Notes: generated by a model not told the origin, from the sequence alone. Shown: positions 1 to 13,451, counted from the first letter of the stretch. The stretch: DNA of 64,000 nucleotides from an uncultured Gemmatimonadota bacterium (GCA_964345885.1 CAYFSW010000091.1:25485-89484); one strand, 5' to 3'. Translations and numbers: made by a program.

Positions 1-462
1 CACCTGGCTGGCGTTCAGTATCAGGTTCATGAAAACCTGGTTCATCTGGCCCGGAAAACACTCGACCGCCGGGAGGTCGCCGTACTCCTTGACCACCTCG
101 ATGCGATGCTTCAGCTCGTGGCCAAGTAGCAGTAGGGTGCTGTCCAGAACCCTGCGCAGATCGACGCTCCGCTTCACCGCCTCATCGGTCTGCCACAGAC
201 TCCGCGCGCTGGCCACCAGATCGGTGATCACGTCGACGGCGAGCTGATCGATCTCGACTACCTCATCGAGCGTCTTCACCAAGCTGCGGATCTCTTCGAT
301 CTCCGATTGGTCGACCACGTCGTCTGCCAGGATGTTCAGCAGGCGGCTGATCGCTCTCTGGAGTACGTCACGGTTACTGCGGATGGCACCGAGGGGCGTG
401 TTCAGCTCGTGGGCCAGTCCCGCCATGAGTTGCTGCAGCGAGCCGTTCTCTTGCTCACTCAT
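1..462 (-). CDS. Histidine kinase, N-terminal part; the gene continues beyond the window start
   Basis: The reverse-strand translation starts at the ATG at 462..460 and reads MSEQENGSLQQLMAGLAHELNTPLGAIRSN... (a HisKA H-box, HELNTPL), then ...GQMNQVFMNLILNA (start of the HATPase N-box). There is no sensor domain before HisKA. The start overlaps the stop of the upstream receiver gene (ATGA). Confidence 0.7.
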   Translation of the reverse strand, partial: MSEQENGSLQQLMAGLAHELNTPLGAIRSNRDVLQRAISRLLNILADDVVDQSEIEEIRSLVKTLDEVVEIDQLAVDVITDLVASARSLWQTDEAVKRSVDLRRVLDSTLLLLGHELKHRIEVVKEYGDLPAVECFPGQMNQVFMNLILNASQV

Positions 463-935
463 AGCAGCGCTTGCATCAGGCGCTTGCGGAATCCGGCTAG
501 ATCTTCGTGTGCCGACTCGAGCTCAGCCGCGCGCGCCTCGAGTTCCCTGACCAGCGCGGCTCGCTCGACCCCGTTGCGGACGACGACCTGCAGATGATCG
601 CTGTCCCACGGCTTCTCTAGATAGTAATAGAGGCCCGCCTCGTTGATCGCGCGGATCGCGTTCTCCTTATCGGCGTAACCGGTGAGCAAGATCCGCGTAG
701 CCTCCGGACGTTTCTCCCGCACCGCCTTGAGAAACGTGATACCGTCCATCTCGGGCATCATGAAATCCGCGATCACTACATCGATCCACTCGGCGTCGGT
801 CGAATCCAGGGCCTCTACCGGCGAGGTGAAGGTCAACACTCGGTACGCGGTCTCGAGCGACAGGAAACTGCGCAACGCACTCGTGACCATCTCTTCGTCA
901 TCAACGACCAGGATCGTCGCCTTCTGTTCAGCCAT
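459..935 (-). CDS. Stand-alone response-regulator receiver (CheY-like REC with a short C-terminal coiled-coil tail)
   Basis: ILVVDDEEMV...DVVIADFMMPEMDGITFLKAV...ILLTGYAD are classic REC motifs (phospho-acceptor Asp and conserved Lys). It is 158 aa and has no output domain. Confidence 0.9.
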   Translation of the reverse strand: MAEQKATILVVDDEEMVTSALRSFLSLETAYRVLTFTSPVEALDSTDAEWIDVVIADFMMPEMDGITFLKAVREKRPEATRILLTGYADKENAIRAINEAGLYYYLEKPWDSDHLQVVVRNGVERAALVRELEARAAELESAHEDLAGFRKRLMQALL

Positions 936-949
936 CGTTTCTCCTCGAG

Positions 950-3900
950 CTACGCCACCAGATTTCGCAGACGCCGCGCCAGACCCGCCAGCAGGCCGCG
1001 GGCCAGTTCGGCATGATCGGCCAGCAGATCGTAAAAGTCCTCCCTGGTCAGCCTCAGGAGCTCGCTCGCCCCCACGGCCCGCGCCTCGATCAGGCTGGGC
1101 GATCCGTCTATCAGGGCCCAGGTACCGAACGCCGTGCCGTCCTCGGCCGTGAGAACCTCCTCGTCTGAACGACGAAGCTCGACGCCCCCCCGAACGACTA
1201 TATACATCGCTTCGGTCGGTTCGTCCTGCCTGATTAGAACCGTACCCGGCATCACACTAACTTCCTCAGTGACGGAAGCCAGCAACGCCAAGTGCTCGGC
1301 GCGCGCATCGCTCAGCAGATCAACTTGCTGGAGTAGGAACACCTTCTCGATCAGGTTCATCTCGCTGCTCTCCGGCTGCGTTGATTTCTCATCCAGTCGT
1401 GCCAGCGCACGCTCTGCCAGGTCCCGCAATTCGGGGCTCGCGGACTGCCGAGCCCGTTGCAGTGCCTCATCCACCCACGGTTCCTGCAACTCCGCCGCGG
1501 CCCAGAGTGCGCAGCTCGCGAGCCAGACATCGTCGTCCGCCATTATCTCGGTCAGTACATCGCGGGCCTCGCCGTGACGGCTCTTGACTGCCCCTTCTTG
1601 AACCGCAGGGAGTAGGCGCTTGAACAGACCGTGCCCCACCGTCTGCTCCAGCCACTCCAGGGCATTGGCACGAGCGACGGTGCCGCCACGCTCGAGTGTC
1701 ATGTACGAGCGATAGACACCGTGCGGCGGGAACCACAGGCCGAGGGTGCGGAAGACTCGCTCGCGTCCGCTCAACCAAGCCTCCGAAAGCGAGCGCTGGA
1801 GAAGCCCCACGGCGGGACCACCGAGGCCGAGACGCTTGAGCGCCGCGGCAGCATCGGCGTAGCGGGCGCCGGACTGTATCTCCCGCTCCAGTACCTGCGC
1901 CACCGGCTCGATCGAGAACAGCAAGCCCGGGCCCCCTTTAGTCCGCAGCTTGTTGAGAGCCTTGAGCGCTCGGTATCGCAGCAGCCGGTCGGGCGGAGCG
2001 GCTGCCACTATCCGGAGCATGTCATCGACGGTGGCCTGGACTGGTATCCGGCCGAGAACCGCCGGGATGTTACGTCTAACCGCAGGCTTCACCGACGCAT
2101 CCTCTAGGTAGTCGGCGAGTGTGCCCTCGACCTGCTCGCCCTGCGAAACCAGGGCCTCGCGTGCCGCTTCACGTGTGGCCGACGTGCCGAGGGCAGAAAT
2201 CAGACTGGGGAGGAACTCGCGGCGTCCGAGACGCCCGGCGGTTCTCATTGCCGCCTCTGCCACCTCCGACTCGGGATCCCGCAACAGTGGGTTGAGCGCA
2301 TTCTCGAGCCGCGGGTCGTCACCCAGCGCCACGAGGGCAAGGGCCAGCTCGACGCGAGCTTCGACTCCGTCACTCTGTGCCTCGCTCATCAGGCGCTCGA
2401 GGTACTCCGGTGCCACGACCTCGGGCCACTCGAGCCATGCACCTTCCTCGCCCAGACAGGAAAGGGCGGCCACGCGCACGGGTCGTTCGCTCGAGTCGAG
2501 CAGCGACCTGATGACACTCTCGGGATCCGCACCTGCACTGCACAACAAGCGCACCGCGGCGACACGCACACGTTCGTCGGGGTCCTCGGCCAGCTCGCGG
2601 ACGCGCTGCCAGTCGGTTTCCTCTGGGAAGTCCGTCAGCGCGACCAGGGCCCGCCTGCGGATGCGTGGGCTCGGATTCGCCAGAAGTCCATGAAGGTCTT
2701 TTACCAGCGGCCGGGCGCTCGCCGCGTCCGCCTGTTCCACCAGATCGAGGGCGAACGCGACAGCGCGTTCGTCACCCGAAGAGAGCGTGCGCTGGACGGC
2801 GGGTATCGTGCTGGCGTCGGCCATCGACGCGAAGATGCCCTCGAAACTGGCGAAGCGACCCCGGATCGAGCGCGCCAGGGTCTTTACGTACTCGCGCCGC
2901 ACCGCAATCGCCACAGCCACCCAGACGACGCCCAGCCCTACGGCGACGTATCCGACCTTCCGGTAGTCGATGACCAGGATGGACAAGAAGATCAGCACGC
3001 TGGAAAGGGCTTTCCCGAAGCCCTTCTCCACCGCCATGTCGATGTACGCCTTCGCCTTCAGCTTGATGCTGTCGGGCAACGGCACGTAGAGGATCTCGCG
3101 TCCTGCCCGCTCCGCACTGTAACGGAACGAGGAATCGCCCGCCTTAGCTATAACAGCCGCCACCAAGCTCCATGTCAGTGCGAGTCCGACGTTCGCGGTA
3201 AGCAGCACGACAGGCAGCATGAGTACCACGAGACCGACCCCCCAGCGGTGCAAGATCGGACGCAGCGCCGCCAGAACGACGAGCGGTAACCACTGGGTCG
3301 CCGCGAAGAACTTGCCCTGGAACGCGCCGATCGCGTCGCGCGTCTCGTACGTTTCGCCGACAATCTCGTTGAACTGGTAATCGACCAGCTGCTTGACGAA
3401 CACCGTGAGCAGGACGGCCCCGGCTATCAGCAAGACGTGCTTATTGCGGAAAATCGTCAGAAACTCGGCGAGCGAATACTGCTCCGGACGGCGTACCCCT
3501 GGCCGGCACGTTTCGCCCGCCTGCGCCGCCAAGACGTAGGGGAGCGCTGCCGCGAACGCCACGACGAAGAACGCGGCCACCAGCAGCATATTGGGCGCGC
3601 CAAGGCGCTCGACAAAGAAGCCGGTGATCGCAGCGCCGAAAACGGCTCCGATCGAGCCACCCGCAATGGCGAAGGGGTAGAGGCGTTTGGCCTCCCGGGC
3701 ATCGAAGCACAACTGCGTCGCCATGAAGAACTGGGTGACCATGACGGCGGCGTACAGGTCGTACCAACCGTAGAAGACCACGCCGAACGCAGTACTTCCT
3801 TCCCGATACAAGACGCGGAAGACCAGAAAGCTGGCCGCGAAGAAGAGCGTGACGATGGGAATCAAGCGTCGCCACGGGATTCGGTCCGCCAGCCGATTGT

Positions 3901-4117
3901 AGGGAACCACGAACAGGATGACGATCGCGCTGATCATGTAGACCTTGTAGAACTCGCTATCGGCTAGGCCCTCGAGCGCGAACGCGTTGCGGGTCGGCTT
4001 GAGGATGCCGACCGTGGTGACGACGAGGAAAAACAGGCTGGCCATCATTACAGCCTTGGCCGCTTCTCCACGCCCAAGCTGAGGCAGCTGTGGAAAGAGC
4101 TTACGGAGAACTCGCAA
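950..4117 (-). CDS. Large fusion protein: N-terminal ~12-TM TLC/Npt-type (MFS-like) transporter domain, central HEAT/PBS-lyase repeats, and a C-terminal cyclic-nucleotide-binding (CAP_ED) domain
   Basis: The N-terminal 430 aa are hydrophobic helices (ILKPTRNAFALEGL..., typical of ATP/ADP translocase-like TLC carriers). Residues ~450-900 carry repeated RVRVAAV..L / RVAALSCL HEAT-like units. The C-terminus reads LLQQVDLLSD...MYIVVRGGVEL...FGTWALIDGSPSLIEARAV, a cNMP-binding beta-roll. Confidence 0.8.
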   Translation of the reverse strand: MRVLRKLFPQLPQLGRGEAAKAVMMASLFFLVVTTVGILKPTRNAFALEGLADSEFYKVYMISAIVILFVVPYNRLADRIPWRRLIPIVTLFFAASFLVFRVLYREGSTAFGVVFYGWYDLYAAVMVTQFFMATQLCFDAREAKRLYPFAIAGGSIGAVFGAAITGFFVERLGAPNMLLVAAFFVVAFAAALPYVLAAQAGETCRPGVRRPEQYSLAEFLTIFRNKHVLLIAGAVLLTVFVKQLVDYQFNEIVGETYETRDAIGAFQGKFFAATQWLPLVVLAALRPILHRWGVGLVVLMLPVVLLTANVGLALTWSLVAAVIAKAGDSSFRYSAERAGREILYVPLPDSIKLKAKAYIDMAVEKGFGKALSSVLIFLSILVIDYRKVGYVAVGLGVVWVAVAIAVRREYVKTLARSIRGRFASFEGIFASMADASTIPAVQRTLSSGDERAVAFALDLVEQADAASARPLVKDLHGLLANPSPRIRRRALVALTDFPEETDWQRVRELAEDPDERVRVAAVRLLCSAGADPESVIRSLLDSSERPVRVAALSCLGEEGAWLEWPEVVAPEYLERLMSEAQSDGVEARVELALALVALGDDPRLENALNPLLRDPESEVAEAAMRTAGRLGRREFLPSLISALGTSATREAAREALVSQGEQVEGTLADYLEDASVKPAVRRNIPAVLGRIPVQATVDDMLRIVAAAPPDRLLRYRALKALNKLRTKGGPGLLFSIEPVAQVLEREIQSGARYADAAAALKRLGLGGPAVGLLQRSLSEAWLSGRERVFRTLGLWFPPHGVYRSYMTLERGGTVARANALEWLEQTVGHGLFKRLLPAVQEGAVKSRHGEARDVLTEIMADDDVWLASCALWAAAELQEPWVDEALQRARQSASPELRDLAERALARLDEKSTQPESSEMNLIEKVFLLQQVDLLSDARAEHLALLASVTEEVSVMPGTVLIRQDEPTEAMYIVVRGGVELRRSDEEVLTAEDGTAFGTWALIDGSPSLIEARAVGASELLRLTREDFYDLLADHAELARGLLAGLARRLRNLVA

Positions 4118-4182
4118 GAAACAACTCCTCGAGTTTTTCGGCTAGGCCCACTGAGGACAGTAAGATAACCGCCGGCGTACCT

Positions 4183-5409
4183 TCAGCCAGAGCCCACGCC
4201 GACCGGCAGTGAAATCTCAACCTTGGTGCCAAGGTTCGGCTCGCTGCTGACCCGGAGCTCGCCGCCGTGGTCGTGTATTATCTGACGCCAGGTATAAAGG
4301 CCCCACGACGTCGCCACCCGGCCTTCCTTAACCCGAAAGCTCGGCTCGAAGATCCCCCTCAGCTGCTCCGTCTCGATTCCACGCCCCGTGTCGGCGATCC
4401 GAATCCGGACAAAGCCTTTCTCGAGGCGGGTTGTAAGCCGTACCTCACCCTCCTCCTCGATGGCATTGGCGGCGTTGTCGAGGAGGTCTTCGAACACCTC
4501 GCTGAGGCCAGCCGGGTGACCGATCACTTTGGGCAGTTCGGCGTATTCCCTAATCACCCGTATTCGGGCGCCCCAGCTATCGGAGAGCACGGTCACCGCA
4601 TCGTTTAGGAGCGCGTTGACGTCTACCGGGCGCCGTTGCGTCGCGTCGGCATCCAGATGGATCAGCCGCTGGAAGCGAGCCACCAGGCGCGAGATCCGCC
4701 GGAGAGCCTCGCGCGACATCTCGGCAGCGCCCTTGGCATCGGCTAGTAGGCGCTCCACGGCGTCCGGATCCTCGCTCCTGACTGCAATCTCTTCCAGCAG
4801 CCGCTCGACTATCTGAGCACCCGCCGCCAGCACCGCCAGCGGGTTGTTCAGTTCGTGGCTAAGAGCAGCGGCCAATCGGCCCTGTGACCCGGATCGCGTC
4901 GCCGCCAAGAGGTCCGTCGCCGACCGGGGTAGCGCACCCGGATCGAGCATCCAGCAAACCGTCCAGACCGCGCCGCCCTCCCTACTCTCGCTCTCCGGCC
5001 GCCTGCGCAGGCAGAGCACCCCGCAGGCGGGGAAAGAGAAGATCTCATGGCCAGCGTCGCCCGACACGAGACGCGAGGCTAAGCGGTCGAGATGAGGGAG
5101 GTGGCCCACCAACATGAGGTCGGTGGTGGCCCGCGAGAGCGACTCGGCGAGCTCCTCGACATCGGCCAGCGGATCCAGGTTCGGCACCTCGGTGACCGGC
5201 GCGACGGCACCACTACCCGCAGCCAAGATCTCCGCCGTCTGCCGGGCCCGCAGCTTCATGCTGTGGTGGATGCCGCCGACCGACAGCCTGATTCCGCCCA
5301 AAAGAGTGGCCACACGGCGGACCATCTCGGAACCCGCCTCGGTGAGTGGCCGCTCCGGGTCCTGTTCTTTGGACTTGGCCTCGCCGTGGCGAACCAGGTA
5401 GAGGTACAC
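4183..5409 (-). CDS. Fusion of a SixA-type phosphohistidine phosphatase (histidine-phosphatase superfamily) to a HisKA+HATPase_c histidine kinase
   Basis: The N-terminus reads MYLYLVRHGEA...MLVGHLPHL (RHG and catalytic His motifs of SixA/PGAM). It is followed by LSHELNNPLAVL (H-box) and the N/G-box region DNAANAI...IADTGRGI...GLGL. Confidence 0.85.
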   Translation of the reverse strand: MYLYLVRHGEAKSKEQDPERPLTEAGSEMVRRVATLLGGIRLSVGGIHHSMKLRARQTAEILAAGSGAVAPVTEVPNLDPLADVEELAESLSRATTDLMLVGHLPHLDRLASRLVSGDAGHEIFSFPACGVLCLRRRPESESREGGAVWTVCWMLDPGALPRSATDLLAATRSGSQGRLAAALSHELNNPLAVLAAGAQIVERLLEEIAVRSEDPDAVERLLADAKGAAEMSREALRRISRLVARFQRLIHLDADATQRRPVDVNALLNDAVTVLSDSWGARIRVIREYAELPKVIGHPAGLSEVFEDLLDNAANAIEEEGEVRLTTRLEKGFVRIRIADTGRGIETEQLRGIFEPSFRVKEGRVATSWGLYTWRQIIHDHGGELRVSSEPNLGTKVEISLPVGVGSG

Positions 5410-5535
5410 AGCCGCTCCTCACAGGGGTACCCGCCAGACCGCTCGAGAAGAAGGCAAAATATCTCAGCGCGCGCGGCGTGTCGACGGCTGGACCTGACTC
5501 AGCCGGCGACCTTGTTTTTGTGAGGTCCGCTCCCC

Positions 5536-6696
5536 ATGTTGCGCCTTCCAACCACCCAAAACCGTCGCTCTGAGATGAACGGATTGGTGCTGTCGGGCGG
5601 CGGCGCCCGCGCCGCCTACCAGGTCGGTGTGCTCTCCTACCTCGCCGAGAAGGCACCCGAGGTGAGCTTCCCCATCATCGTCGGCGTCTCGGCAGGCGCG
5701 ATCAACGCGGCATTCCTGGCCGGACAACGGGGGACACCGACCGAAAATCTGGGGTCGCTCTCCAGCTGTTGGACGAGCCTGAACACCGACCGCGTCTTCG
5801 ACACCAACCTGAGCGCCCTCGGGCTCAGCGGCGCCCGCTGGCTGTGGACGCTGGGCGGCGGTGGTACGTCTCTCGGTCCGCGGGTGAAGGGTTTGCTGGA
5901 CACGAGCCCGTTGAGGGAGTTCCTCGAGGAGCAGGTACTCGTCGAGGGGATTGCGATGAACGTGGCGGAGGGGCGATTACGCGCCCTTGGACTCACCGCT
6001 ACTCGCTACGCCACAGGCCAGAGCGTAACGTTCGTGCAGGGCGCCGAAGACGTGCCAACCTGGGAGCGCGTTCGCCGCTGCGGCCTGCCCGCCAAGATCT
6101 CCGTCGATCATGTGATGGCATCCGGGTCGATCCCGTTCATCTTCCCGGCCACAGCGATCGACGGCGAGTACTACGGCGACGGCAGCATACGCCAGGCCGC
6201 GCCACTGGCCCCCGCCATCCATCTGGGCGCCCAGCGCCTGCTGGCCATCGCGACTCGCTACAACCCGACCCTGGAAGAAGTAAGAGCCCTGGCTACGACC
6301 GGCTACCCGCAGCCGGCCCGGATCATGGGAGCCCTGCTCAACAGCATCTTCCTCGACGCCCTCGAGGCCGACGCCGAGCGCCTGGAGCGCATTAACCGCC
6401 TGTTGGAAGCGCTGCCGCCCGGTGCGCCCAATCCCGACGGCCTCCGACGAATCGATACTCTCGTCATCCGCCCCTCGAGAGACCTCGGCTCGCTGGCCCA
6501 GCCCCATAAAGGCAGACTGCCCCGCACGCTGCGGTTCATGCTCCGCGGCCTGGGCATCCATCGCATGCACGGCGCCGAGCTACTCAGCTATCTCATCTTC
6601 GAGCCGCCCTACATCAGTCGCGTCATGGAGCTCGGCTACGAGGACGCTCTGACGCGCTGGGACGAGATGGAGCGATTCTTTTCGGACGGTGCGTGA
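5536..6696 (+). CDS. Patatin-like phospholipase
   Basis: LVLSGGGARAAYQVGVL (oxyanion GGG[AG]R) and GVSAGAINAA (the GxSxG nucleophile elbow). Confidence 0.85.
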   Translation: MLRLPTTQNRRSEMNGLVLSGGGARAAYQVGVLSYLAEKAPEVSFPIIVGVSAGAINAAFLAGQRGTPTENLGSLSSCWTSLNTDRVFDTNLSALGLSGARWLWTLGGGGTSLGPRVKGLLDTSPLREFLEEQVLVEGIAMNVAEGRLRALGLTATRYATGQSVTFVQGAEDVPTWERVRRCGLPAKISVDHVMASGSIPFIFPATAIDGEYYGDGSIRQAAPLAPAIHLGAQRLLAIATRYNPTLEEVRALATTGYPQPARIMGALLNSIFLDALEADAERLERINRLLEALPPGAPNPDGLRRIDTLVIRPSRDLGSLAQPHKGRLPRTLRFMLRGLGIHRMHGAELLSYLIFEPPYISRVMELGYEDALTRWDEMERFFSDGA

Positions 6697-6706
6697 TCGC
6701 TGAATC

Positions 6707-7687
6707 CTATAACCCGAGCAACCGGTCGGCGTTAGCCGCGAGGATCGCCTGCTCGGTGGTCGCTGGAACGTCGAGCGCCCGAATGCTGGCCGTCATCGAT
6801 TTCAAACTGCCGATCATATGCGGATAATCGCTCCCTGCGACCAGATGCTCGGGCCCCGCGAAGTCGAGGGCCAGGCGCAGGGCAGCGGGGTCGAAGTTCA
6901 CCGTGTCGTAGTAGAAGCGTCGGAGGTAGACACTCGGGGGCTCCTCGATGTTGGCGCGGCACTCGCTGAACGCGTGGAAGCCGCGGTCGAGCCGCTCGGC
7001 CAGATAGGGGATCGCGCCGCCGAGATGCGCCAGCACCCATCGAACGCCGGGGAACCGCCGGGGCACGCCAGCGAAGACCAGGTGAGCGGCAGCCAGTGTG
7101 GTGTCGAAGGTGAACCCGACCAGCGGCATTAGCCAGTACTCGGTCATCGCCTCCACCCCCACCGGGTAGGTCGGGTGCACGTAGATGACGGCGCCCAGCT
7201 CCTCCGCCCGCTCCCACAACGGCCAGAACCGTTCGTCGGCCAGCGCCACGCCCCCGACGTTACTGAAGACCATCGCGCCGGGCAGGCCTAGCTCGCCCAC
7301 GGCGCGGGTGAGCTCGACGACCGATGCGGCCGGGTCGTTGAGCGGCAACGTCGCCAACGCGGTGAACCGGCCGCCCCGCTCCTCGACGATCCGTGCGAAG
7401 GCGTCGTTCACCGCCCCGGCGAGCCGTACCGCCATCTCCGGTTCTTCTATATGTACGCCGGGCGCGGTGAACGTCAGCACCTGGACGTCCACACCCACCT
7501 GGTCGAGCACGCTCTCCCGATACTCGATGTCGCGGTGGCCACGGACCGCGACGTTGATGTCGCCCGGTGAATGAAGGACCGGGTTGTTCTCCGAGTCGGT
7601 GGAGATCGCCACCCGGCACGGCCCGGCGCGCAGTGCGTCCAGGTACTCTGCCGGATAGAAGTGGTTGTGGAAGTCAACGACTCGCAT
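6707..7687 (-). CDS. Amidohydrolase-2 family metal-dependent hydrolase (ACMSD/TIM-barrel type)
   Basis: The MRVVDFHNHFYP... N-terminal HxH metal motif and HPTYP... are typical of COG2159. A strong GAGGAGG RBS sits 6 nt upstream of the ATG at 7687. The longer ORF that begins at 7774 is probably an over-extension. Confidence 0.8.
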   Translation of the reverse strand: MRVVDFHNHFYPAEYLDALRAGPCRVAISTDSENNPVLHSPGDINVAVRGHRDIEYRESVLDQVGVDVQVLTFTAPGVHIEEPEMAVRLAGAVNDAFARIVEERGGRFTALATLPLNDPAASVVELTRAVGELGLPGAMVFSNVGGVALADERFWPLWERAEELGAVIYVHPTYPVGVEAMTEYWLMPLVGFTFDTTLAAAHLVFAGVPRRFPGVRWVLAHLGGAIPYLAERLDRGFHAFSECRANIEEPPSVYLRRFYYDTVNFDPAALRLALDFAGPEHLVAGSDYPHMIGSLKSMTASIRALDVPATTEQAILAANADRLLGL

Positions 7688-9047
7688 GCTCGCCTCCTCG
7701 TTCATCACCACGGGCTCGCAGCCAGATGTAGTACACGGGGAACCCCACCAGGACAAGCGCCAGGCCGAATGCACTTTCGCCGGGCTCCGAGACCAGCTGG
7801 TTCCCGACGATGACCGCGGTCGAGAGCACGAAGACGGCCGGGATCACCGGAAACCCCCAGATCGTATAGCGCGGCGAGTACTCCGGGCGCCGACGCAACA
7901 GAAAGAGCCCCGCGGCCATCAGGCCGAAGAAGATCCATTCGGTGTAGACCACGCGCGTAAAGAGCGCCTGGTAGGTCCCCGTCACCACGAGGACGGATGA
8001 CCACACGGCCTGCGCGACTATCGCACGGTGCGGCGTCCGGAAGCGCGGGTGCACCTCCCCCAGCCAACGGAAGAGTAGCCCGTCGCTCGCCATCGCGTAG
8101 TAGACGCGCGGTCCGGCGAGCACGATCCCGCTCAGCGCGCCGAAGGTCGAGAAGATCACCAGCGCCGACATCACAGAGCCTCCACCCCGTCCCAGCACCG
8201 CATCGGCCGCGTCGGCTGCCACCCGCGACGACGAGATCACCCTCTCCAGCGGCAGGATGTACAGATAGACCGCGTTGAGGGCGATGTAGCACGCCGTAAC
8301 GACCAGCGTGCCGACGAGCAGAGCCCGGGGGATCGTGCGCTCCGGCTCAACGGTCTCGTCACCCGCGTAGGTCACCATGTGCCAACCGCCGAAGGCGAAC
8401 AGGCCGGCGATCAGCGCCAGAACGAACCCGCGCAGGCCGCCGGCACCACTGACGCTCACGCCGGCAGCCGATTCGGGTGCCGAGTTCCCTACTCCCACGG
8501 CGAGCTGGTCCGGCACCCGCGAGCCGAGGAGGAGCCCGGCAATCACGATCCCGACGATCGCTGCGACCTTTCCGATGGTGAACGCCGTCTGCAGTGCGCT
8601 TCCCTGGCGCACGCCGATGTAGTTGACGGCGGAAAGCACCAGGATGCAGCCGATCGCCACGAGCTGTACGCCCAGATCGCCGAGCGGCGCGAAGTAGCCG
8701 ACGTAACGTGCGAACACCACCGCGATCGCGGCCAGGATCCCGCTGTGCATGCTCCAGAACATCGCCCAGCCCCAGAGGAACCCGACGGCGGGTGAGAACT
8801 CCTCGCCGAGAAAGACATAGACGCCACCGGTGCGCGGGTAGACCGAGGAGAGCTCGGCGCAGACGAGCGCCCCGAACAGCGTGAGGGTGCCCGCGATCGC
8901 CCAGACGGCGAAGACACCAGGAATCGATGGGACCTGACCGGTGATCAGCGATGGTTGGACGAAGATCGAAGCGCCGATGATGGTGCCCACCACCATCGCC
9001 GTCGCGCGCACGATCCCGATCGAGCGCTCGAGCTGCGGCCTCACCAT
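7674..9047 (-). CDS. APC-superfamily amino-acid permease
   Basis: 12 predicted TM helices; IVRATAMVVGTIIGASIFVQP...FAVWAIAGTLTLFGALVCAELSSVYPRTGG is the APC consensus region. Confidence 0.85.
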   Translation of the reverse strand: MVRPQLERSIGIVRATAMVVGTIIGASIFVQPSLITGQVPSIPGVFAVWAIAGTLTLFGALVCAELSSVYPRTGGVYVFLGEEFSPAVGFLWGWAMFWSMHSGILAAIAVVFARYVGYFAPLGDLGVQLVAIGCILVLSAVNYIGVRQGSALQTAFTIGKVAAIVGIVIAGLLLGSRVPDQLAVGVGNSAPESAAGVSVSGAGGLRGFVLALIAGLFAFGGWHMVTYAGDETVEPERTIPRALLVGTLVVTACYIALNAVYLYILPLERVISSSRVAADAADAVLGRGGGSVMSALVIFSTFGALSGIVLAGPRVYYAMASDGLLFRWLGEVHPRFRTPHRAIVAQAVWSSVLVVTGTYQALFTRVVYTEWIFFGLMAAGLFLLRRRPEYSPRYTIWGFPVIPAVFVLSTAVIVGNQLVSEPGESAFGLALVLVGFPVYYIWLRARGDERGGEHASR

Positions 9048-9078
9048 CGCCGCCTCCTCGATGGCCGCGTCAAGCTTA

Positions 9079-10788
9079 TCAGGATTGGAGCTGTGGGCGT
9101 CTCAGGTGGAAGTCGGTCGCCTCTTGATACGCACGCGCTACCGCCAGCGCCTCCGACTCGCCGTAGAGGCTGCCGATGAAGCTGATGCTCGTCGGCGTGC
9201 CATCTTCCCGGAACCCGTTCGGCAAAACAACACACGGGTGTCCGGTGAGATTGGTCAGCGTGAGGTTGTTGCCGCCATAGGACGGGGTGACGTAGACGTC
9301 CACCTGCGACATGACCTCTGCCATTTCTTCCAGCAGCAGCGTGCGCGTTCGGTTGGCCTGGATGTACTCGACGGCGGGGATGAACCGTGCCTGGCGAAAC
9401 GAGTTGGGCCAGGCGCCCCTGTCCTGACGTTTCAGCAGATCGTCGCGCCCGCTTCGTGTCAGATCGTCGAAGGCCGCCGCCGCCTCGGCGCTGAGAACTG
9501 TGCGCATCGCGCTTACCGGCAGATCCGGCAGCTCGATCGGGATCAGCTCGATCCCTAAGGAACCCAGGGTCTCCAGTACCGCCTCGTCGAACGCCTTCCA
9601 CTCCGGCTGGCGCTCGCGCTCCTCCTCGAAAGCGCTCTTCAGATAACCGACCCGCAGATTCCTTACATCGAGCTCGGCGTCCCAGACGAATGGCAGGTCC
9701 ACGACCGTAAGATCCTTCCCGTCGGGACCGTAGATCGCCTCGAACACCAGCGCACAGTCCTCGACGCTGCGACAGATCGGACCGACCTTGTCCATACTCC
9801 AGGAGAGCGCCATCGCACCGTAGCGGCTCACGCGTCCGAAAGTGGGCCGCAAACCGGTCGTACCGCAGCGCGTGCACGGCGAGACGATCGACCCCAGGGT
9901 CTCGGTGCCGATGCCGAAGCCCACGAGCCCCGCCGCCGTCGCCGCCGCCGGGCCGGCCGACGAGCCGCTCGAACCTTCCTCGTAGTCCCAGGGGTTGCGC
10001 GTCCTGCCACCATACCAGACGTCGCCCATCGCCAGCGCCCCCAGCGTCAGCTTCGCCACCAGCACGGCGCCCGCCTCCTCAAGCCGCGCGGCCACCGTCG
10101 CGTCCTCATCGATCACCTGGTCCTTGTACGGCTCGGCGCCCCACGTCGTCCTGTACTCGGGTGTCGCCAAGAGATCCTTCGCACCCCACGGGATACCGTG
10201 CAGCGGACCGCGGTAGGTGCCGCCGGCGATCTCAGCGTCGGCTTGACGGGCCTGCTCGAGGGCGAGCTCCTCGGTGAGCGTGACTATGCACTCGAGCTTG
10301 GGCCCGTACTTCTTCAGTCGCTCGAGGTACATCGTGGTGAGTTGTACCGACGACAGACGCCGCGTCTCGATGAGCTTCGCCAGGTGCGTCACCGGCCAGA
10401 ACGCGACTTCCTCCAAGTCCGACGGCACCCGATCGATCCGTACCTCGCTGCGGCGCGAGACCCCCGGCTCGCGGGTCACGGTGCGGCCCGGCGGCACAGG
10501 TTCGAAGTAGAGCGCCGGCGGCACTTTGTTGACCAGCTCGAGGCTGCGGATCACTTCATAGCCGTCCAACCGGCGGTTGAGCCCCTGCACCATCAACTCG
10601 CGCTCTTCGTCGGTGAACTCGAGGCCGGCGACCACCTCGCAGTCGGCGATCATCTCCTTGGTGATCCTGAGCTCCTCCTCATCCTGTAGCAACTTCCAGA
10701 GCGCGCCAGGAAGCAGCGTGGACGAAAGACCGATACCCGAGAAGTAGGCGAGGAAACGACGGCGGCTGAACTCGGTTGCGGTTGACAT
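9079..10788 (-). CDS. Amidase-signature family amidase with a TAT signal peptide
   Basis: The N-terminus SRRRFLAYFSGIGLSS is a twin-arginine signal. The GSSGSSAG...GTETLGSIVSP amidase-signature region is present. Confidence 0.85.
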   Translation of the reverse strand: MSTATEFSRRRFLAYFSGIGLSSTLLPGALWKLLQDEEELRITKEMIADCEVVAGLEFTDEERELMVQGLNRRLDGYEVIRSLELVNKVPPALYFEPVPPGRTVTREPGVSRRSEVRIDRVPSDLEEVAFWPVTHLAKLIETRRLSSVQLTTMYLERLKKYGPKLECIVTLTEELALEQARQADAEIAGGTYRGPLHGIPWGAKDLLATPEYRTTWGAEPYKDQVIDEDATVAARLEEAGAVLVAKLTLGALAMGDVWYGGRTRNPWDYEEGSSGSSAGPAAATAAGLVGFGIGTETLGSIVSPCTRCGTTGLRPTFGRVSRYGAMALSWSMDKVGPICRSVEDCALVFEAIYGPDGKDLTVVDLPFVWDAELDVRNLRVGYLKSAFEEERERQPEWKAFDEAVLETLGSLGIELIPIELPDLPVSAMRTVLSAEAAAAFDDLTRSGRDDLLKRQDRGAWPNSFRQARFIPAVEYIQANRTRTLLLEEMAEVMSQVDVYVTPSYGGNNLTLTNLTGHPCVVLPNGFREDGTPTSISFIGSLYGESEALAVARAYQEATDFHLRRPQLQS

Positions 10789-10826
10789 GGCGCCTCCTGT
10801 TGATCAGCAACGCTCACTGAAACAGA

Positions 10827-11813
10827 TCAAAAGACATCCAGGTCGTTCCCATACACGACTGCTCCATCATAGACCTGGCGTATTTCATCGACCAGCTCCG
10901 CCGGCGTCGAGCCCCAGAGTAGCTGATGATAGAGGACGAGCAAACCCGGCTGTGCCTGCGCCGCGATGCGGCCCAGTTCCAGCGACGAGGTGTGGGAGTT
11001 GGCATGGTAGAGCTGCCAAACCGGTTCCCGGCGCTCGAACCCCGCCTGCGAGTACACCTCGTGAACCAGCACGTCGCAGCCGCGACAGTTCTCGGCGATC
11101 GCCGGACTGGGGCCGGTATCACCCGACACGACGATCGTCCGGTCGGGCGTCTCGAAGCGATAGCCGAACGACTGTGACCACGCCCCATGCTCGACCAGGA
11201 AGGCGGTGACCCGCACGTTTTCATCCTCGTATACGAGACCGGGCTCGATCTCGTGCACGTTCACCCTGTAGCCATCCGGGTTGGCGGGCTCGAGGCCGTC
11301 GAGGCGAACCCGTATGTCCGCCTCGTAAGCGGCCAGCAGGTGATCGGTCATCGCCCGCAGGCCGGCCGGTCCGAACACCTCCGCCGGGACGTCGCGCTCC
11401 AGCACCCACGGCGTGAAGATGAAATCGCCGTAGCCCAGGGTGTGATCACTGTGCAGATGCGTGATGAAGGCGAACCTGAGCTTTGGCACCTCCAGCCCGG
11501 CGATGCCCGTCTGATAGGCCGCTTTCGCGCGCCGCACCACCCCCGGGCCCAGATCGACCAGGTACGGCGTGCCGGCCACAACGATTGCCACCGCCGAGCC
11601 CGAACGCTCCGGCTCGGCGTTCGGCGTGCCGGTGCCCAGCAGAACCACCCGTGTGCGCCCCGAATCAGCGGGCGCCGCCGCAGAACCCTCCGCGTTGTCG
11701 GCCGAACTCGGGCGGCAGGCCGCTGCACTCGCCAGTACCACGACGAGCGAGTAACGAAGCGCACTAAGGGCTCTGTTCACATGTACGACTCCGCTGCAAC
11801 GGGAATTCGGCAA
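10827..11813 (-). CDS. Secreted or lipoprotein MBL-fold metallo-hydrolase
   Basis: ITHLHSDHTLGY (HxHxDH) and downstream His/Asp ligands are present. The N-terminus has a signal/lipobox-like segment (LVVVLASAAAC). The true start may instead be the internal GTG (VNRALSAL...). Confidence 0.75.
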   Translation of the reverse strand: MPNSRCSGVVHVNRALSALRYSLVVVLASAAACRPSSADNAEGSAAAPADSGRTRVVLLGTGTPNAEPERSGSAVAIVVAGTPYLVDLGPGVVRRAKAAYQTGIAGLEVPKLRFAFITHLHSDHTLGYGDFIFTPWVLERDVPAEVFGPAGLRAMTDHLLAAYEADIRVRLDGLEPANPDGYRVNVHEIEPGLVYEDENVRVTAFLVEHGAWSQSFGYRFETPDRTIVVSGDTGPSPAIAENCRGCDVLVHEVYSQAGFERREPVWQLYHANSHTSSLELGRIAAQAQPGLLVLYHQLLWGSTPAELVDEIRQVYDGAVVYGNDLDVF

Positions 11814-11879
11814 TCCATGATTAATTGACAGTCATGAATTGCCGAATTCCCTCTGTTCCTCCCATTCCCACTACGATAT

Positions 11880-13451
11880 CTACCGCGAGCGGTATTCTTC
11901 CCAGCTCCGCATCGGAGCCCGACACTCGGGCCAGGTCATCTGCTCTCCGGTCCGCTGGCTCACCGGCAGCACGCGCCGGTCCCGCGGCATCAACTCCTCC
12001 TCCTCGGATGCGAGGTAGGCGAGCATGGCGAACAGCGTCGCGTTGTTCTTGAGATCATCGATCACGATCTTGTCAAACGTGTCGCGGTTCGTATGCCACG
12101 TGTAGGGGAAATACGCCCAGTTGTGCGCCCCCAAGAAGAAGGCGGGCGCCCCCGTGCAGAGGAACGACGCGTGATCGCTACCACCACCACTCGGCGTCCC
12201 CGGTAACGTGAGGTCGATGTGTCGTGAGATCTCTGTCGGAATCATCGACAGCCAACGCCCGAAGTACTCGCCGGCCCGCGTCAGGCCCGCCCCGGTGGCC
12301 CGCACGATCCGCCCGGTCCCGTTGTCCTGATTCAGCACCACCTGCAGCCCCTCGATCACTTCGGGATGGTCGGCCACGAAGGCTCGCGACCCGATGAGCC
12401 CCTGCTCCTCGGCGCCCCACAGTCCGGCAATGATCGTCCGTTTCGGATTGGGATAGACAGCCTTGAGGATCCGCATCGCCTCCAGCATCGTGACGCTGCC
12501 CGTCCCGTTGTCGGTGGCGCCCGAGCCGCCGTCCCACGAGTCGTAGTGGGCCGAGAACACAACGTACTCGTCGGGCTTCTCCGTACCGCGAATCTCCGCG
12601 ATCGTGTTGAATATCGGCTCCTCGCCGTGGAAGCGCGCTTCCGCCTCGACCTCGAGCACCGGCCCCTGGTCGTGCTCGGCGAGTCGGAAGAGCAGACCGT
12701 AGTCCTCACAGCTCAACGCCAGCGCCGGCACCCGCTCGGTGATGGCGCTGAACACCCGCTGCACGCCCCAACCGCCGGGCCAACTGGACGTCAGGATCCC
12801 TCGGACACCCGCCTCTTCGAGAACGCTGGTAATCTGACGCTGGTCGTAACCGGTCTGCTCGATTCGATCCCGCCACTCGCGGCGCGCCGTGTCGCGCTCG
12901 GCCTGCATACGCTCGAACGACTCCTCGGTGGCGTACTCCTCCCAGTTGTCGTTGGGTCGACAGGTTGGCTCGCCGTAACTGATGAGAACAAACTTGTTTC
13001 GCGCCTCGGGCAGCCACGACTGGAAAGCGGCGGAGTCCGGCACGTCCGGGAACATCACAACCTCGCCCCTGACCGTCCCGCGCGTACCGGCGCTCCAGGC
13101 CAGCAGCATCCCTTCCAGGCTGCGGACCCGGGGCTCCACCAGATCGATGTGTGTGATGCCGCGCTCCCAGTTCATCCAGGTGCCGTACTGTTCGTTGCGG
13201 GCCTCGATGCCCCAGCCGCTGAACATCTGCACCGCCCAATCGTTTGCCGCCTTGTGGGCGGGCGACCCGCTCAGCCGCGGACCGATAGAGTCGAGCAGCG
13301 CCTGCGCCAGACTATAGGCCTGCGAGTTCTCCATCCCTTCCTCCCAGATGCGCTGGATGACCGGGTCGTCAACCGGGAAGGTCTGGGCCGCTGCCACTGA
13401 AGCTGTCGTCAAGAACGCAGCCACGAGCGTGAGACCGATCTTTATTCGCAT
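11880..13451 (-). CDS. Secreted M28-family aminopeptidase
   Basis: Signal peptide MRIKIGLTLVAAFLTTASVAAAQ. HYDSWDGGSGATDNGTGSVTMLE is the M28 Zn-ligand/catalytic region. Confidence 0.85.
   Translation of the reverse strand: MRIKIGLTLVAAFLTTASVAAAQTFPVDDPVIQRIWEEGMENSQAYSLAQALLDSIGPRLSGSPAHKAANDWAVQMFSGWGIEARNEQYGTWMNWERGITHIDLVEPRVRSLEGMLLAWSAGTRGTVRGEVVMFPDVPDSAAFQSWLPEARNKFVLISYGEPTCRPNDNWEEYATEESFERMQAERDTARREWRDRIEQTGYDQRQITSVLEEAGVRGILTSSWPGGWGVQRVFSAITERVPALALSCEDYGLLFRLAEHDQGPVLEVEAEARFHGEEPIFNTIAEIRGTEKPDEYVVFSAHYDSWDGGSGATDNGTGSVTMLEAMRILKAVYPNPKRTIIAGLWGAEEQGLIGSRAFVADHPEVIEGLQVVLNQDNGTGRIVRATGAGLTRAGEYFGRWLSMIPTEISRHIDLTLPGTPSGGGSDHASFLCTGAPAFFLGAHNWAYFPYTWHTNRDTFDKIVIDDLKNNATLFAMLAYLASEEEELMPRDRRVLPVSQRTGEQMTWPECRAPMRSWEEYRSR

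Follow-up and report, generated by a model that had tools for sequence, protein, structure and literature searches.

An NTT-HEAT transporter-like protein linked to a minimal histidine kinase and a coiled-coil receiver across bacterial phyla, with a clade-specific SixA-kinase fusion

Why should a very large transporter-like protein share an operon with two histidine kinases and a response regulator that has no output domain? The question is raised by the first 5,409 nucleotides of a 64,000-nucleotide stretch of DNA (the window) from an uncultured Gemmatimonadota bacterium (GCA_964345885.1, CAYFSW010000091.1:25485-89484), which hold four genes on the minus strand. Gene A (5409..4183, GTG start) encodes a 408-aa SixA-DHp-CA fusion kinase; gene B (4117..950, TTG start) a 1055-aa NTT-HEAT-cNBD protein, where cNBD denotes a cyclic nucleotide-binding domain; gene C (935..459, ATG start) a 158-aa single-domain response regulator with a C-terminal coiled-coil tail (REC-CC); and gene D a minimal DHp-CA kinase without a sensor, which starts with ATG at 462 and continues past the left window edge, so that only its 5' part (1..462, 154 aa) is visible. 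An earlier note on this DNA had described four minus-strand genes with an ATGA overlap and gaps of 66 and 15 bp, encoding a SixA-kinase fusion, a protein with TLC, HEAT and cNMP_binding domains, a receiver without output and a kinase without sensor. Open reading frame (ORF) coordinates confirm the tight packing and the overlap (the C stop and D start share ATGA at 459-462) and correct the gaps to 65 nt between A and B and 14 nt between B and C; profile searches with Pfam and NCBIfam at their own cut-offs bear out the domain assignments. Our answer, to which we give a probability of about 40%, is that the locus is a transporter-centred two-component circuit in which the cytoplasmic arm of B would dock D and C, and phosphorylated C would act back on B.

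To compare gene context across genomes, we ran a scan with one genome per species, which gave 80 loci, and searched their ORFs with the domains of the window proteins. The 79 loci with domain hits were counted, with the duplicates L001 and L003 left out; nearly all of the 79 are labelled Gemmatimonadota, as are the homologues for which an organism is named; crude ORF calling in GC-rich loci gave spurious antisense clusters, and only plus-strand conserved clusters were used. The REC-CC gene follows B in 76 of the 79 loci, two of the other three lying on truncated contigs and the third, L015, being a real exception. All three genes, for B, REC-CC and a D-type kinase, are found in 73 loci, where identity to B falls as low as 39%, and the 4-nt receiver/kinase overlap recurs in 57 of these 73. 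D orthologues are mostly 250-315 aa long and have no sensor. About ten loci of Longimicrobiales type carry an N-terminal extension of 210-264 aa without a Pfam match on the D-type kinase (about 240 aa in L018, L022, L024-L028 and L062; about 210 aa in L020 and L070), which may be an undescribed cytoplasmic sensor domain.

The association extends well beyond this phylum. More than 470 homologues of B were found, and among the 120 matches listed nearly all share the NTT-HEAT-cNBD architecture. A search of 1.84 billion representatives (50% clustering) returned 1840 relatives of the NTT-HEAT family at E <= 1e-30, in three length classes: NTT-HEAT alone, with one cNBD and with two. We sampled nine loci outside Gemmatimonadota, including Krumholzibacteriia, Latescibacterota, Zixibacteria and Nitrospirales, and all nine encode an NTT-HEAT protein, a cNBD-like unit, a histidine kinase and a receiver of 159-165 aa. 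The cNBD-like unit is either fused or a gene of its own (140-149 aa); gene orders include kinase-B-receiver and B-cNBD-PAS kinase-receiver, and in Nitrospirales the cNBD-kinase-receiver set lies on the opposite strand, convergent with B. The receivers of these lineages share 47-59% identity with C, a figure that takes in the coiled-coil tail. At the N-terminus the kinases differ: some have nothing there, others a single membrane helix, PAS, PAS-GAF or an unassigned extension of about 240 aa. This synteny across phyla agrees with the earlier suggestion that the transporter-like protein and the two-component genes work together. It does not fit the idea of four equal parts: from gene neighbourhoods, the conserved unit is B, C and D, with the SixA-kinase A a clade-specific add-on.

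Two observations from these surveys stand apart. One locus, L043, is labelled as a Gammaproteobacteria metagenome-assembled genome; it lies on a 7.9-kb contig, its B is 45% identical to ours, as is typical of Gemmatimonadota loci, and the label is likely a binning error. Gemmatimonadota also have a second, divergent type of NTT-HEAT-cNBD protein (P0264, P0272), 33-34% identical to B and with other cassette motifs, which may represent paralogues.

The membrane domain of B (aa 1-420, 12 modelled helices; 2858..4117, minus strand) was delimited by AlphaFold2, Foldseek and profile searches. The TTG start was accepted because homologue N-termini are conserved, an MR..L.RL segment being common to them. 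B matches Pfam TLC (PF03219) at 36.1 bits (cut-off 21), and an AlphaFold2 model built from 60 homologues (mean predicted local distance difference test, pLDDT, 81.9) places 12 membrane helices at aa 16-420. The top Foldseek matches of this domain in the PDB are AtNTT1 (9j3m/9j3l) and Chlamydia pneumoniae NTT1 (9j3n), with target-normalised TM-scores of 0.66-0.69, and a membrane-domain profile recovers the same two proteins among PDB sequences (E = 2.6e-15 and 7.4e-12). Identity to AtNTT1 and CpNTT1 is only 15-16%, and B scores 32.6 bits against the profile of canonical NTP/NDP exchange transporters (TIGR00769), far below its cut-off of 387.2, placing B by sequence in a distant NTT subfamily rather than among the canonical exchangers. 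AtNTT1 transport requires four charged residues, K155, E245, E385 and K527 (PMC4256464), which pair in the profile alignment with K58, D120, D246 and K369 of B. The two Asp residues and K369 never vary in the family; at position 58, Lys, Arg or Gln is found. On these alignments, the membrane domain of B is a true NTT homologue in which the four residues required for transport are retained in kind, and since they are invariant or so retained, B probably still binds or moves an anionic substrate, nucleotide-like or phosphate.

Behind the membrane domain lies a cytoplasmic arm. A HEAT-repeat solenoid (aa 437-909; 1391..2809, minus strand; HEAT_2, 68.2 bits) is modelled with helices paired throughout and has structural matches that include alphaRep and the PP2A A-subunit. 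A disordered linker (aa 911-931, pLDDT < 50) joins it to a CNB-like domain (aa 932-1055; 953..1324, minus strand) that matches cNMP_binding (PF00027) at 52.3 bits (cut-off 27.5). The CNB fold itself is modelled at aa 940-1054 and matches the domains of protein kinase A regulatory subunit (PKA-R), SthK and CRP. Its phosphate-binding cassette, FGTWALIDGSPSLIEA (aa 997-1012; 1082..1129, minus strand), is degenerate. When aligned to the FGELAL..SPRAA of yeast PKA-R (3of1), the ribose-contacting Glu is replaced by Thr and the phosphate-contacting Arg by Ser. Across 60 homologues G998, W1000, L1002 and I1003 are invariant, and F997, T999, P1007 and S1008 are kept in at least 90%. The 150 best family representatives yielded 86 cNBD units, of which just one combines both canonical residues; some clades retain the Arg (FGTWALLDDEPR), none of them with the Glu. 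Canonical gating by cAMP or cGMP through this domain is thus unlikely as judged from the cassette, and because the pocket is strongly conserved, it suggests a ligand or partner that is probably neither of these nucleotides.

Genes C and D encode a receiver and a kinase reduced to their cores. Response_reg (PF00072, 92.7 bits) is the sole domain match of C, whose phospho-acceptor set is complete (D12, D13, D57, T85 and K108) and whose tail of about 40 residues forms a helical coiled coil. Its best NCBIfam match is to the N-terminal 145 residues, receiver plus linker, of REC-HD-GYP regulators (148 bits). HisKA begins at residue 9 of D, which therefore has no N-terminal sensor, and the phospho-acceptor is His18 within the H-box AHELNTPL. 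The window edge cuts the ATPase domain of D, with the start of the N-box visible; the full orthologue (L001/L007) is a complete DHp-CA kinase of 250 aa with all boxes. Compared with the partner kinases of other lineages, the D core shows 37-47% identity, and compared with A only 30%; those partner cores, for their part, are only 27-35% identical to A. The greater resemblance of the partner kinases to D argues that D is the ancestral kinase of the module. As read from the four proteins, the system comprises one receiver with two candidate kinases and, having neither an HPt domain nor a second receiver, is not a phosphorelay.

Gene A is of a different age. Its SixA phosphohistidine phosphatase domain (aa 1-157; 4939..5409, minus strand) matches NCBIfam SixA (TIGR00249) at 95.8 bits (cut-off 74.5) over profile positions 1-140 of 154, and A also matches Pfam His_Phos_1, HisKA and HATPase_c. 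By comparison with E. coli SixA (1UJB) and 3F2I, the site is kept (R7-H8-G9, R20-P-L-T, LRA(R)QT and GHLP), with R7-H8-G9, R20, R54 and H103 aligning to R7-H8-G9, R21, R55 and H108 of the E. coli protein. The catalytic residues are thus intact, and phosphatase activity is predicted. The DHp-CA core (aa 160-408; 4186..4932, minus strand), delimited by alignment to the kinases of L008, L014 and L039, has an H-box with His185 (SHELNNPL), an N-box with D311/N312 (DNAANA), a G1 box (DTGRG, 340-344), an F-box (FEPSF, 354-358) and a G2-like SWGL (368-371) in which the first Gly of G2 is Ser. The same fused architecture of 407-408 aa recurs in nine independent protein clusters (NCBI, JGI and Logan) and in loci L004-L007 and L048, and is therefore no assembly artefact.

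The origin of this fusion can be read from its relatives. Among 243 relatives of A, His_Phos_1 is present in only nine closely related clusters (identity of at least 74%). In sister lineages (L008, L010, L011, L014, L017 and L039) a separate sixA gene of about 160 codons lies directly ahead of a kinase whose N-terminus is a polytopic domain of about 220 residues with about six hydrophobic helices; the gap between the two genes is a single nucleotide in L039. In pairwise and multiple alignments, homology to these membrane kinases starts at residues 159-160 of A, matching their residues 221-264 (L008, L014 and L039), and the junction lies about 25 residues before His185 (LLAATRSGSQGRLAAALSHELN in A versus LIASKRAASQGRLAAALSHELN). 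Upstream of it, A matches the separate SixA proteins through to their C-terminus. Because homology resumes so shortly before the His box and the SixA part is complete, the membrane sensor and linker were deleted in the fusion. In a neighbour-joining tree of B, fused forms make up one clade nested inside the separate-gene clade, and loci without SixA and kinase A fall outside; from this it follows that SixA and kinase A were added in one lineage and fused later, in a single event. Together these comparisons indicate a recent, single origin by deletion of the membrane sensor between sixA and the neighbouring kinase, and what had been seen as a designed, built-in phosphatase would be the product of that loss.

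Relatives further from A gave two leads that we set aside. A GAF domain as ancestral sensor of kinase A, hinted at by P0142, was rejected for the immediate relatives, whose N-terminus is the membrane domain of about six helices. Many distant relatives of the A core (P0152-P0230) are cNMP_binding-HATPase_c kinases of about 470 aa, several with fully canonical GEMALL..PRSATV cassettes; these are probably, by their cassettes, genuine cyclic nucleotide-sensing histidine kinases unrelated to the FGTW-type cNBD of B. They were rejected as a sign that a cNBD regulates the kinase here, their cassettes being canonical GE...PRSA or unrelated, not FGTW.

How might these parts act together? We infer contacts, direction of signal flow, substrate and SixA target as follows. 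The HEAT/cNBD-like arm of B would serve as a docking platform for kinase and receiver. The balance of D between kinase and phosphatase would depend on the state of B (transport or ligand), with the cNBD-like domain as the reader, and D would phosphorylate C. Phosphorylated C would contact a protein partner, most probably B, and so adjust how B transports a phosphorylated substrate, be it nucleotide or phosphate. A is a second, clade-specific kinase, whose SixA domain would most likely strip phosphate from the DHp histidine of A or D as a reset or drain. We take the arm of B as the constant partner because D has no input and C no output, both are almost always found with B and a cNBD-like unit, and the kinase sensors vary. 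A phosphohistidine drain on A or D is favoured because the catalytic residues of SixA are intact, sixA was linked to this kinase before the fusion, and a SixA-like RHG domain at the C-terminus of mycobacterial MutT1 removes phosphate from DHp-type sensor kinases in vitro (PMC12407098).

Several points weigh against this circuit. Sequence alone cannot tell B as sensor from B as target. How the domains of B are arranged relative to one another is uncertain in the model (predicted TM-score, pTM, 0.59), and the mapping to AtNTT1 uses an inferred offset of 84 between precursor and PDB chain, at which all four precursor numbers fall on the matching residue type (K71, E161, E301 and K443). L015 has B without receiver or kinase, and NTT-HEAT proteins also occur in organisms such as Chlamydia (PMC5381601), for which reasons the two-component pair is not obligatory for B. 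That A and D both serve C is an assumption, given that the DHp positions after the His box differ between them. The structure model of A, from a 9-sequence alignment, reached a pLDDT of 51 and nothing was drawn from it. Finally, the substrates known for E. coli SixA in vivo, NPr and Ndk, are not DHp domains.

The alternative that survives best makes B purely a sensor for D, a transceptor that would activate D on binding or transporting a ligand, with phosphorylated C acting not on B but on a target encoded elsewhere (motility, an enzyme of second-messenger metabolism or a partner-switching module, for example); we regard it as possible, if rather improbable. Transporters that serve as sensors for kinases have precedents in UhpC/UhpB, DctA/DcuS and BceAB/BceS, and the missing sensor of D and missing output domain of C fit such an arrangement, as does the closeness of REC-CC to the receiver and linker of HD-GYP phosphodiesterase regulators. 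Outputs outside B are hinted at by two further loci. In L091 a REC-SpoIIE (PP2C phosphatase) gene (9850-11076) lies between the PAS kinase and REC-CC, and in L084 a 409-aa protein with a weak receiver match is encoded upstream (2173-3402); both may be partner-switching outputs in some lineages. However, the kinases of other phyla carry PAS or GAF sensors of their own, so that B is not needed as sole input, yet the linkage persists, and the neighbourhoods contain no conserved candidate target besides B.

A second alternative concerns SixA. Rather than acting on two-component histidines, the SixA domain of A might act on an NPr- or Ndk-type substrate and be merely co-localised, or serve as a pseudo-sensor that regulates the attached kinase. 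An Ndk substrate would accord with the E. coli enzyme and suit the nucleotide theme of B, and SixA occupies the exact former place of the sensor domain. We nevertheless consider this unlikely, in view of the tight linkage of sixA to the kinase before fusion, the retention of every catalytic residue and the in vitro activity of a SixA-like domain on DHp kinases.

The linkage itself might be no more than historical co-transcription, in which case B would simply transport nucleotides or phosphate, and kinase and receiver would serve an unrelated pathway. These genomes keep much of their gene order, unrelated ctaB, coxC, rdgB and hut genes included, and L015 lacks receiver and kinase; but the four parts remain together through rearrangements (kinase upstream or downstream, cNBD fused or separate, Nitrospirales on the opposite strand) while flanking genes are entirely different between the non-Gemmatimonadota loci, which makes this account very improbable. 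Least probable of all is the proposal of the earlier note, a cyclic nucleotide-gated transporter feeding a His-Asp phosphorelay with a built-in phosphatase: a CNB fold is present above the Pfam cut-off, Major et al. likewise speculated on cAMP control of such proteins (PMC5381601) and transporters with functional CNB domains (SLC9C1, SthK) are among the Foldseek matches, but the cassette has lost both canonical residues in at least 90% of the clade homologues and almost throughout the family, Pfam and NCBIfam detect neither an HPt domain nor a second receiver in the four proteins or the conserved neighbourhood, and that neighbourhood contains no adenylate or guanylate cyclase.

GAGGAG Shine-Dalgarno sequences precede A, B and C. 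Upstream of A lies a divergent intergenic region of 126 bp that contains a promoter-like site, TCGACA-17-TATTTT (5456..5484, minus strand; a consensus match only), and beyond it an opposite-strand gene for a patatin-like phospholipase (5536-6696, plus strand), from which we conclude that the operon begins at A. Four terminator-like sites were found inside the operon against 3.7 expected from shuffling, giving no evidence of internal termination, and an Rfam scan of positions 1-7000 returned no riboswitch or other RNA match at E <= 1. PADLOC anti-phage defence models gave domain-level matches only (HEAT-ARM; the cNBD of PycTIR effectors, 32-33 bits), and since these are to generic domains, membership of the operon in a defence system was rejected. 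The patatin-like gene also stands beside the orthologous operon in L001 (B 70% identical). Further along the window (6707-13451, minus strand) are genes for Amidohydro_2, an amino-acid permease, an amidase, an MBL-fold hydrolase and an M28 peptidase, a run that may be a nitrogen or amide scavenging cluster; the amidase and MBL genes are also near the operon in L001.

Accessory genes in other genomes touch on phosphate and nucleotides. In about 35 loci among L013-L083, and in L003 (11492-13751), two exported proteins, both with signal peptides, are encoded after the D-type kinase: a PI3/PI4-kinase-like or SCO1664-like protein of about 320 aa and a PPP-type ApaH-like metallophosphoesterase of about 430 aa (GDxHG, GDxxDRG, GNHE). 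The PI3/PI4-kinase-like gene directly follows B in L015. Downstream of REC-CC in L084 (8601-10324), L086 (8880-10604) and L092 (8666-10425) are genes for proteins of about 425 and 146 aa, followed by a HAMP(-PAS) kinase. The larger protein has a weak Porin_O_P match in L084 and L086 (22.1 bits in L086, cut-off 20.9) and the smaller a weak PstS/PBP_like_2 match in the same two loci, with signal peptides seen in L086; domain scans covered L084 and L086, and the L092 genes match theirs in size and order only. In L087 (Latescibacterota), PhoU and a Na/Pi cotransporter gene (11520-12748, minus strand) adjoin the NTT-HEAT/cNBD/kinase/receiver cluster, and the gene directly ahead of NTT-HEAT encodes a lipoprotein metallophosphoesterase. 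The closest relatives of the window have a RibD_C gene after D, and the phosphate-theme genes are absent from them. With its weak matches, this theme is a lead rather than evidence for the locus studied here.

What follows for NTT-HEAT proteins more widely? They have been reported in cyanobacteria, Chlamydia and oomycetes, with no assigned function since their description in 2017 (PMC5381601). A kinase, a receiver and a cNBD-like unit that travel with them across phyla provide concrete, testable partners, and argue that NTT-HEAT proteins are regulated or signalling devices rather than plain ATP importers; the degenerate cNBD-like site steers the search for a ligand away from cAMP and cGMP. The SixA fusion and its precursor pair, sixA and a membrane kinase, offer genomic evidence on the targets of bacterial phosphohistidine phosphatases, and in the fusion nature supplies a compact construct with which to study dephosphorylation of a DHp histidine in cis. 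Tentatively, NTT-HEAT proteins could be hubs of widespread, undescribed two-component circuits embedded in a transporter, through which the supply of nucleotides or phosphate is reported or controlled, carrying a cNBD-like module that does not bind cyclic nucleotides, a minimal kinase and a coiled-coil receiver on the HEAT arm, and the SixA-DHp fusion could be the first natural "Rosetta stone" for SixA-type action on DHp phosphohistidine.

Each part of this system comes from a known family, and the NTT-HEAT-cNBD architecture has been published before. Major, Embley and Williams (2017, Genome Biol Evol, PMC5381601) described fusions with a three-part architecture identical to that of B, the cNBD being fused or encoded immediately downstream and Gemmatimonadetes being among the taxa; they left the function unknown and proposed cAMP control. 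Their paper makes no mention of histidine kinases, response regulators or two-component systems, and our literature search found no published link between NTT-HEAT proteins and two-component genes; the kinase and REC-CC partners and the degenerate cassette are added here. We likewise found no published description of the coupling to a kinase and coiled-coil receiver, of the non-canonical cNBD site, or of the SixA-DHp fusion and its origin. AtNTT1 (9j3j/9j3l/9j3m) and CpNTT1 (9j3n/9j3o) are the best structural and profile matches to B, with the four charged residues kept in kind; B differs from both in carrying about 630 extra cytoplasmic residues. A has the same RHG histidine-phosphatase fold and catalytic residues as E. 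coli SixA and as mycobacterial MutT1, whose C-terminal domain is SixA-like. Whereas E. coli SixA is free-standing and MutT1 is fused to Nudix, A has SixA in cis on a DHp-CA kinase, replacing the sensor.

Three further comparisons place the conserved module. CheY, DivK and CpdR are single-domain response regulators; like them, and like the RpfG/HD-GYP receiver, C has all phospho-acceptor residues and no DNA-binding domain, but unlike them it has a conserved coiled-coil tail of about 40 residues and its gene adjoins an NTT-HEAT gene in all loci examined. CNB-homology domains that do not bind cyclic nucleotides are known from the CNBHD of KCNH channels, CooA and CprK, and SLC9C1 is a transporter with a functional CNBD; B shares with this group a CNB fold on a membrane transport protein and has a cassette without the phosphate-binding Arg, whereas the conserved FGTW motif is specific to its family. 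Close parallels are the co-sensing two-component systems UhpC/UhpB, DctA/DcuS and BceAB/BceS, in which, as at this locus, a transporter or transporter-like gene is genetically tied to a kinase unable to sense the signal alone; here the tie is seen in the genes, and contact between the proteins is predicted. UhpB, DcuS and BceS are membrane kinases that meet their transporter in the membrane, and their regulators bind DNA. At the locus described here, by contrast, the kinase is predicted to be soluble, the regulator has no output domain and the transporter-like protein carries a large HEAT platform.

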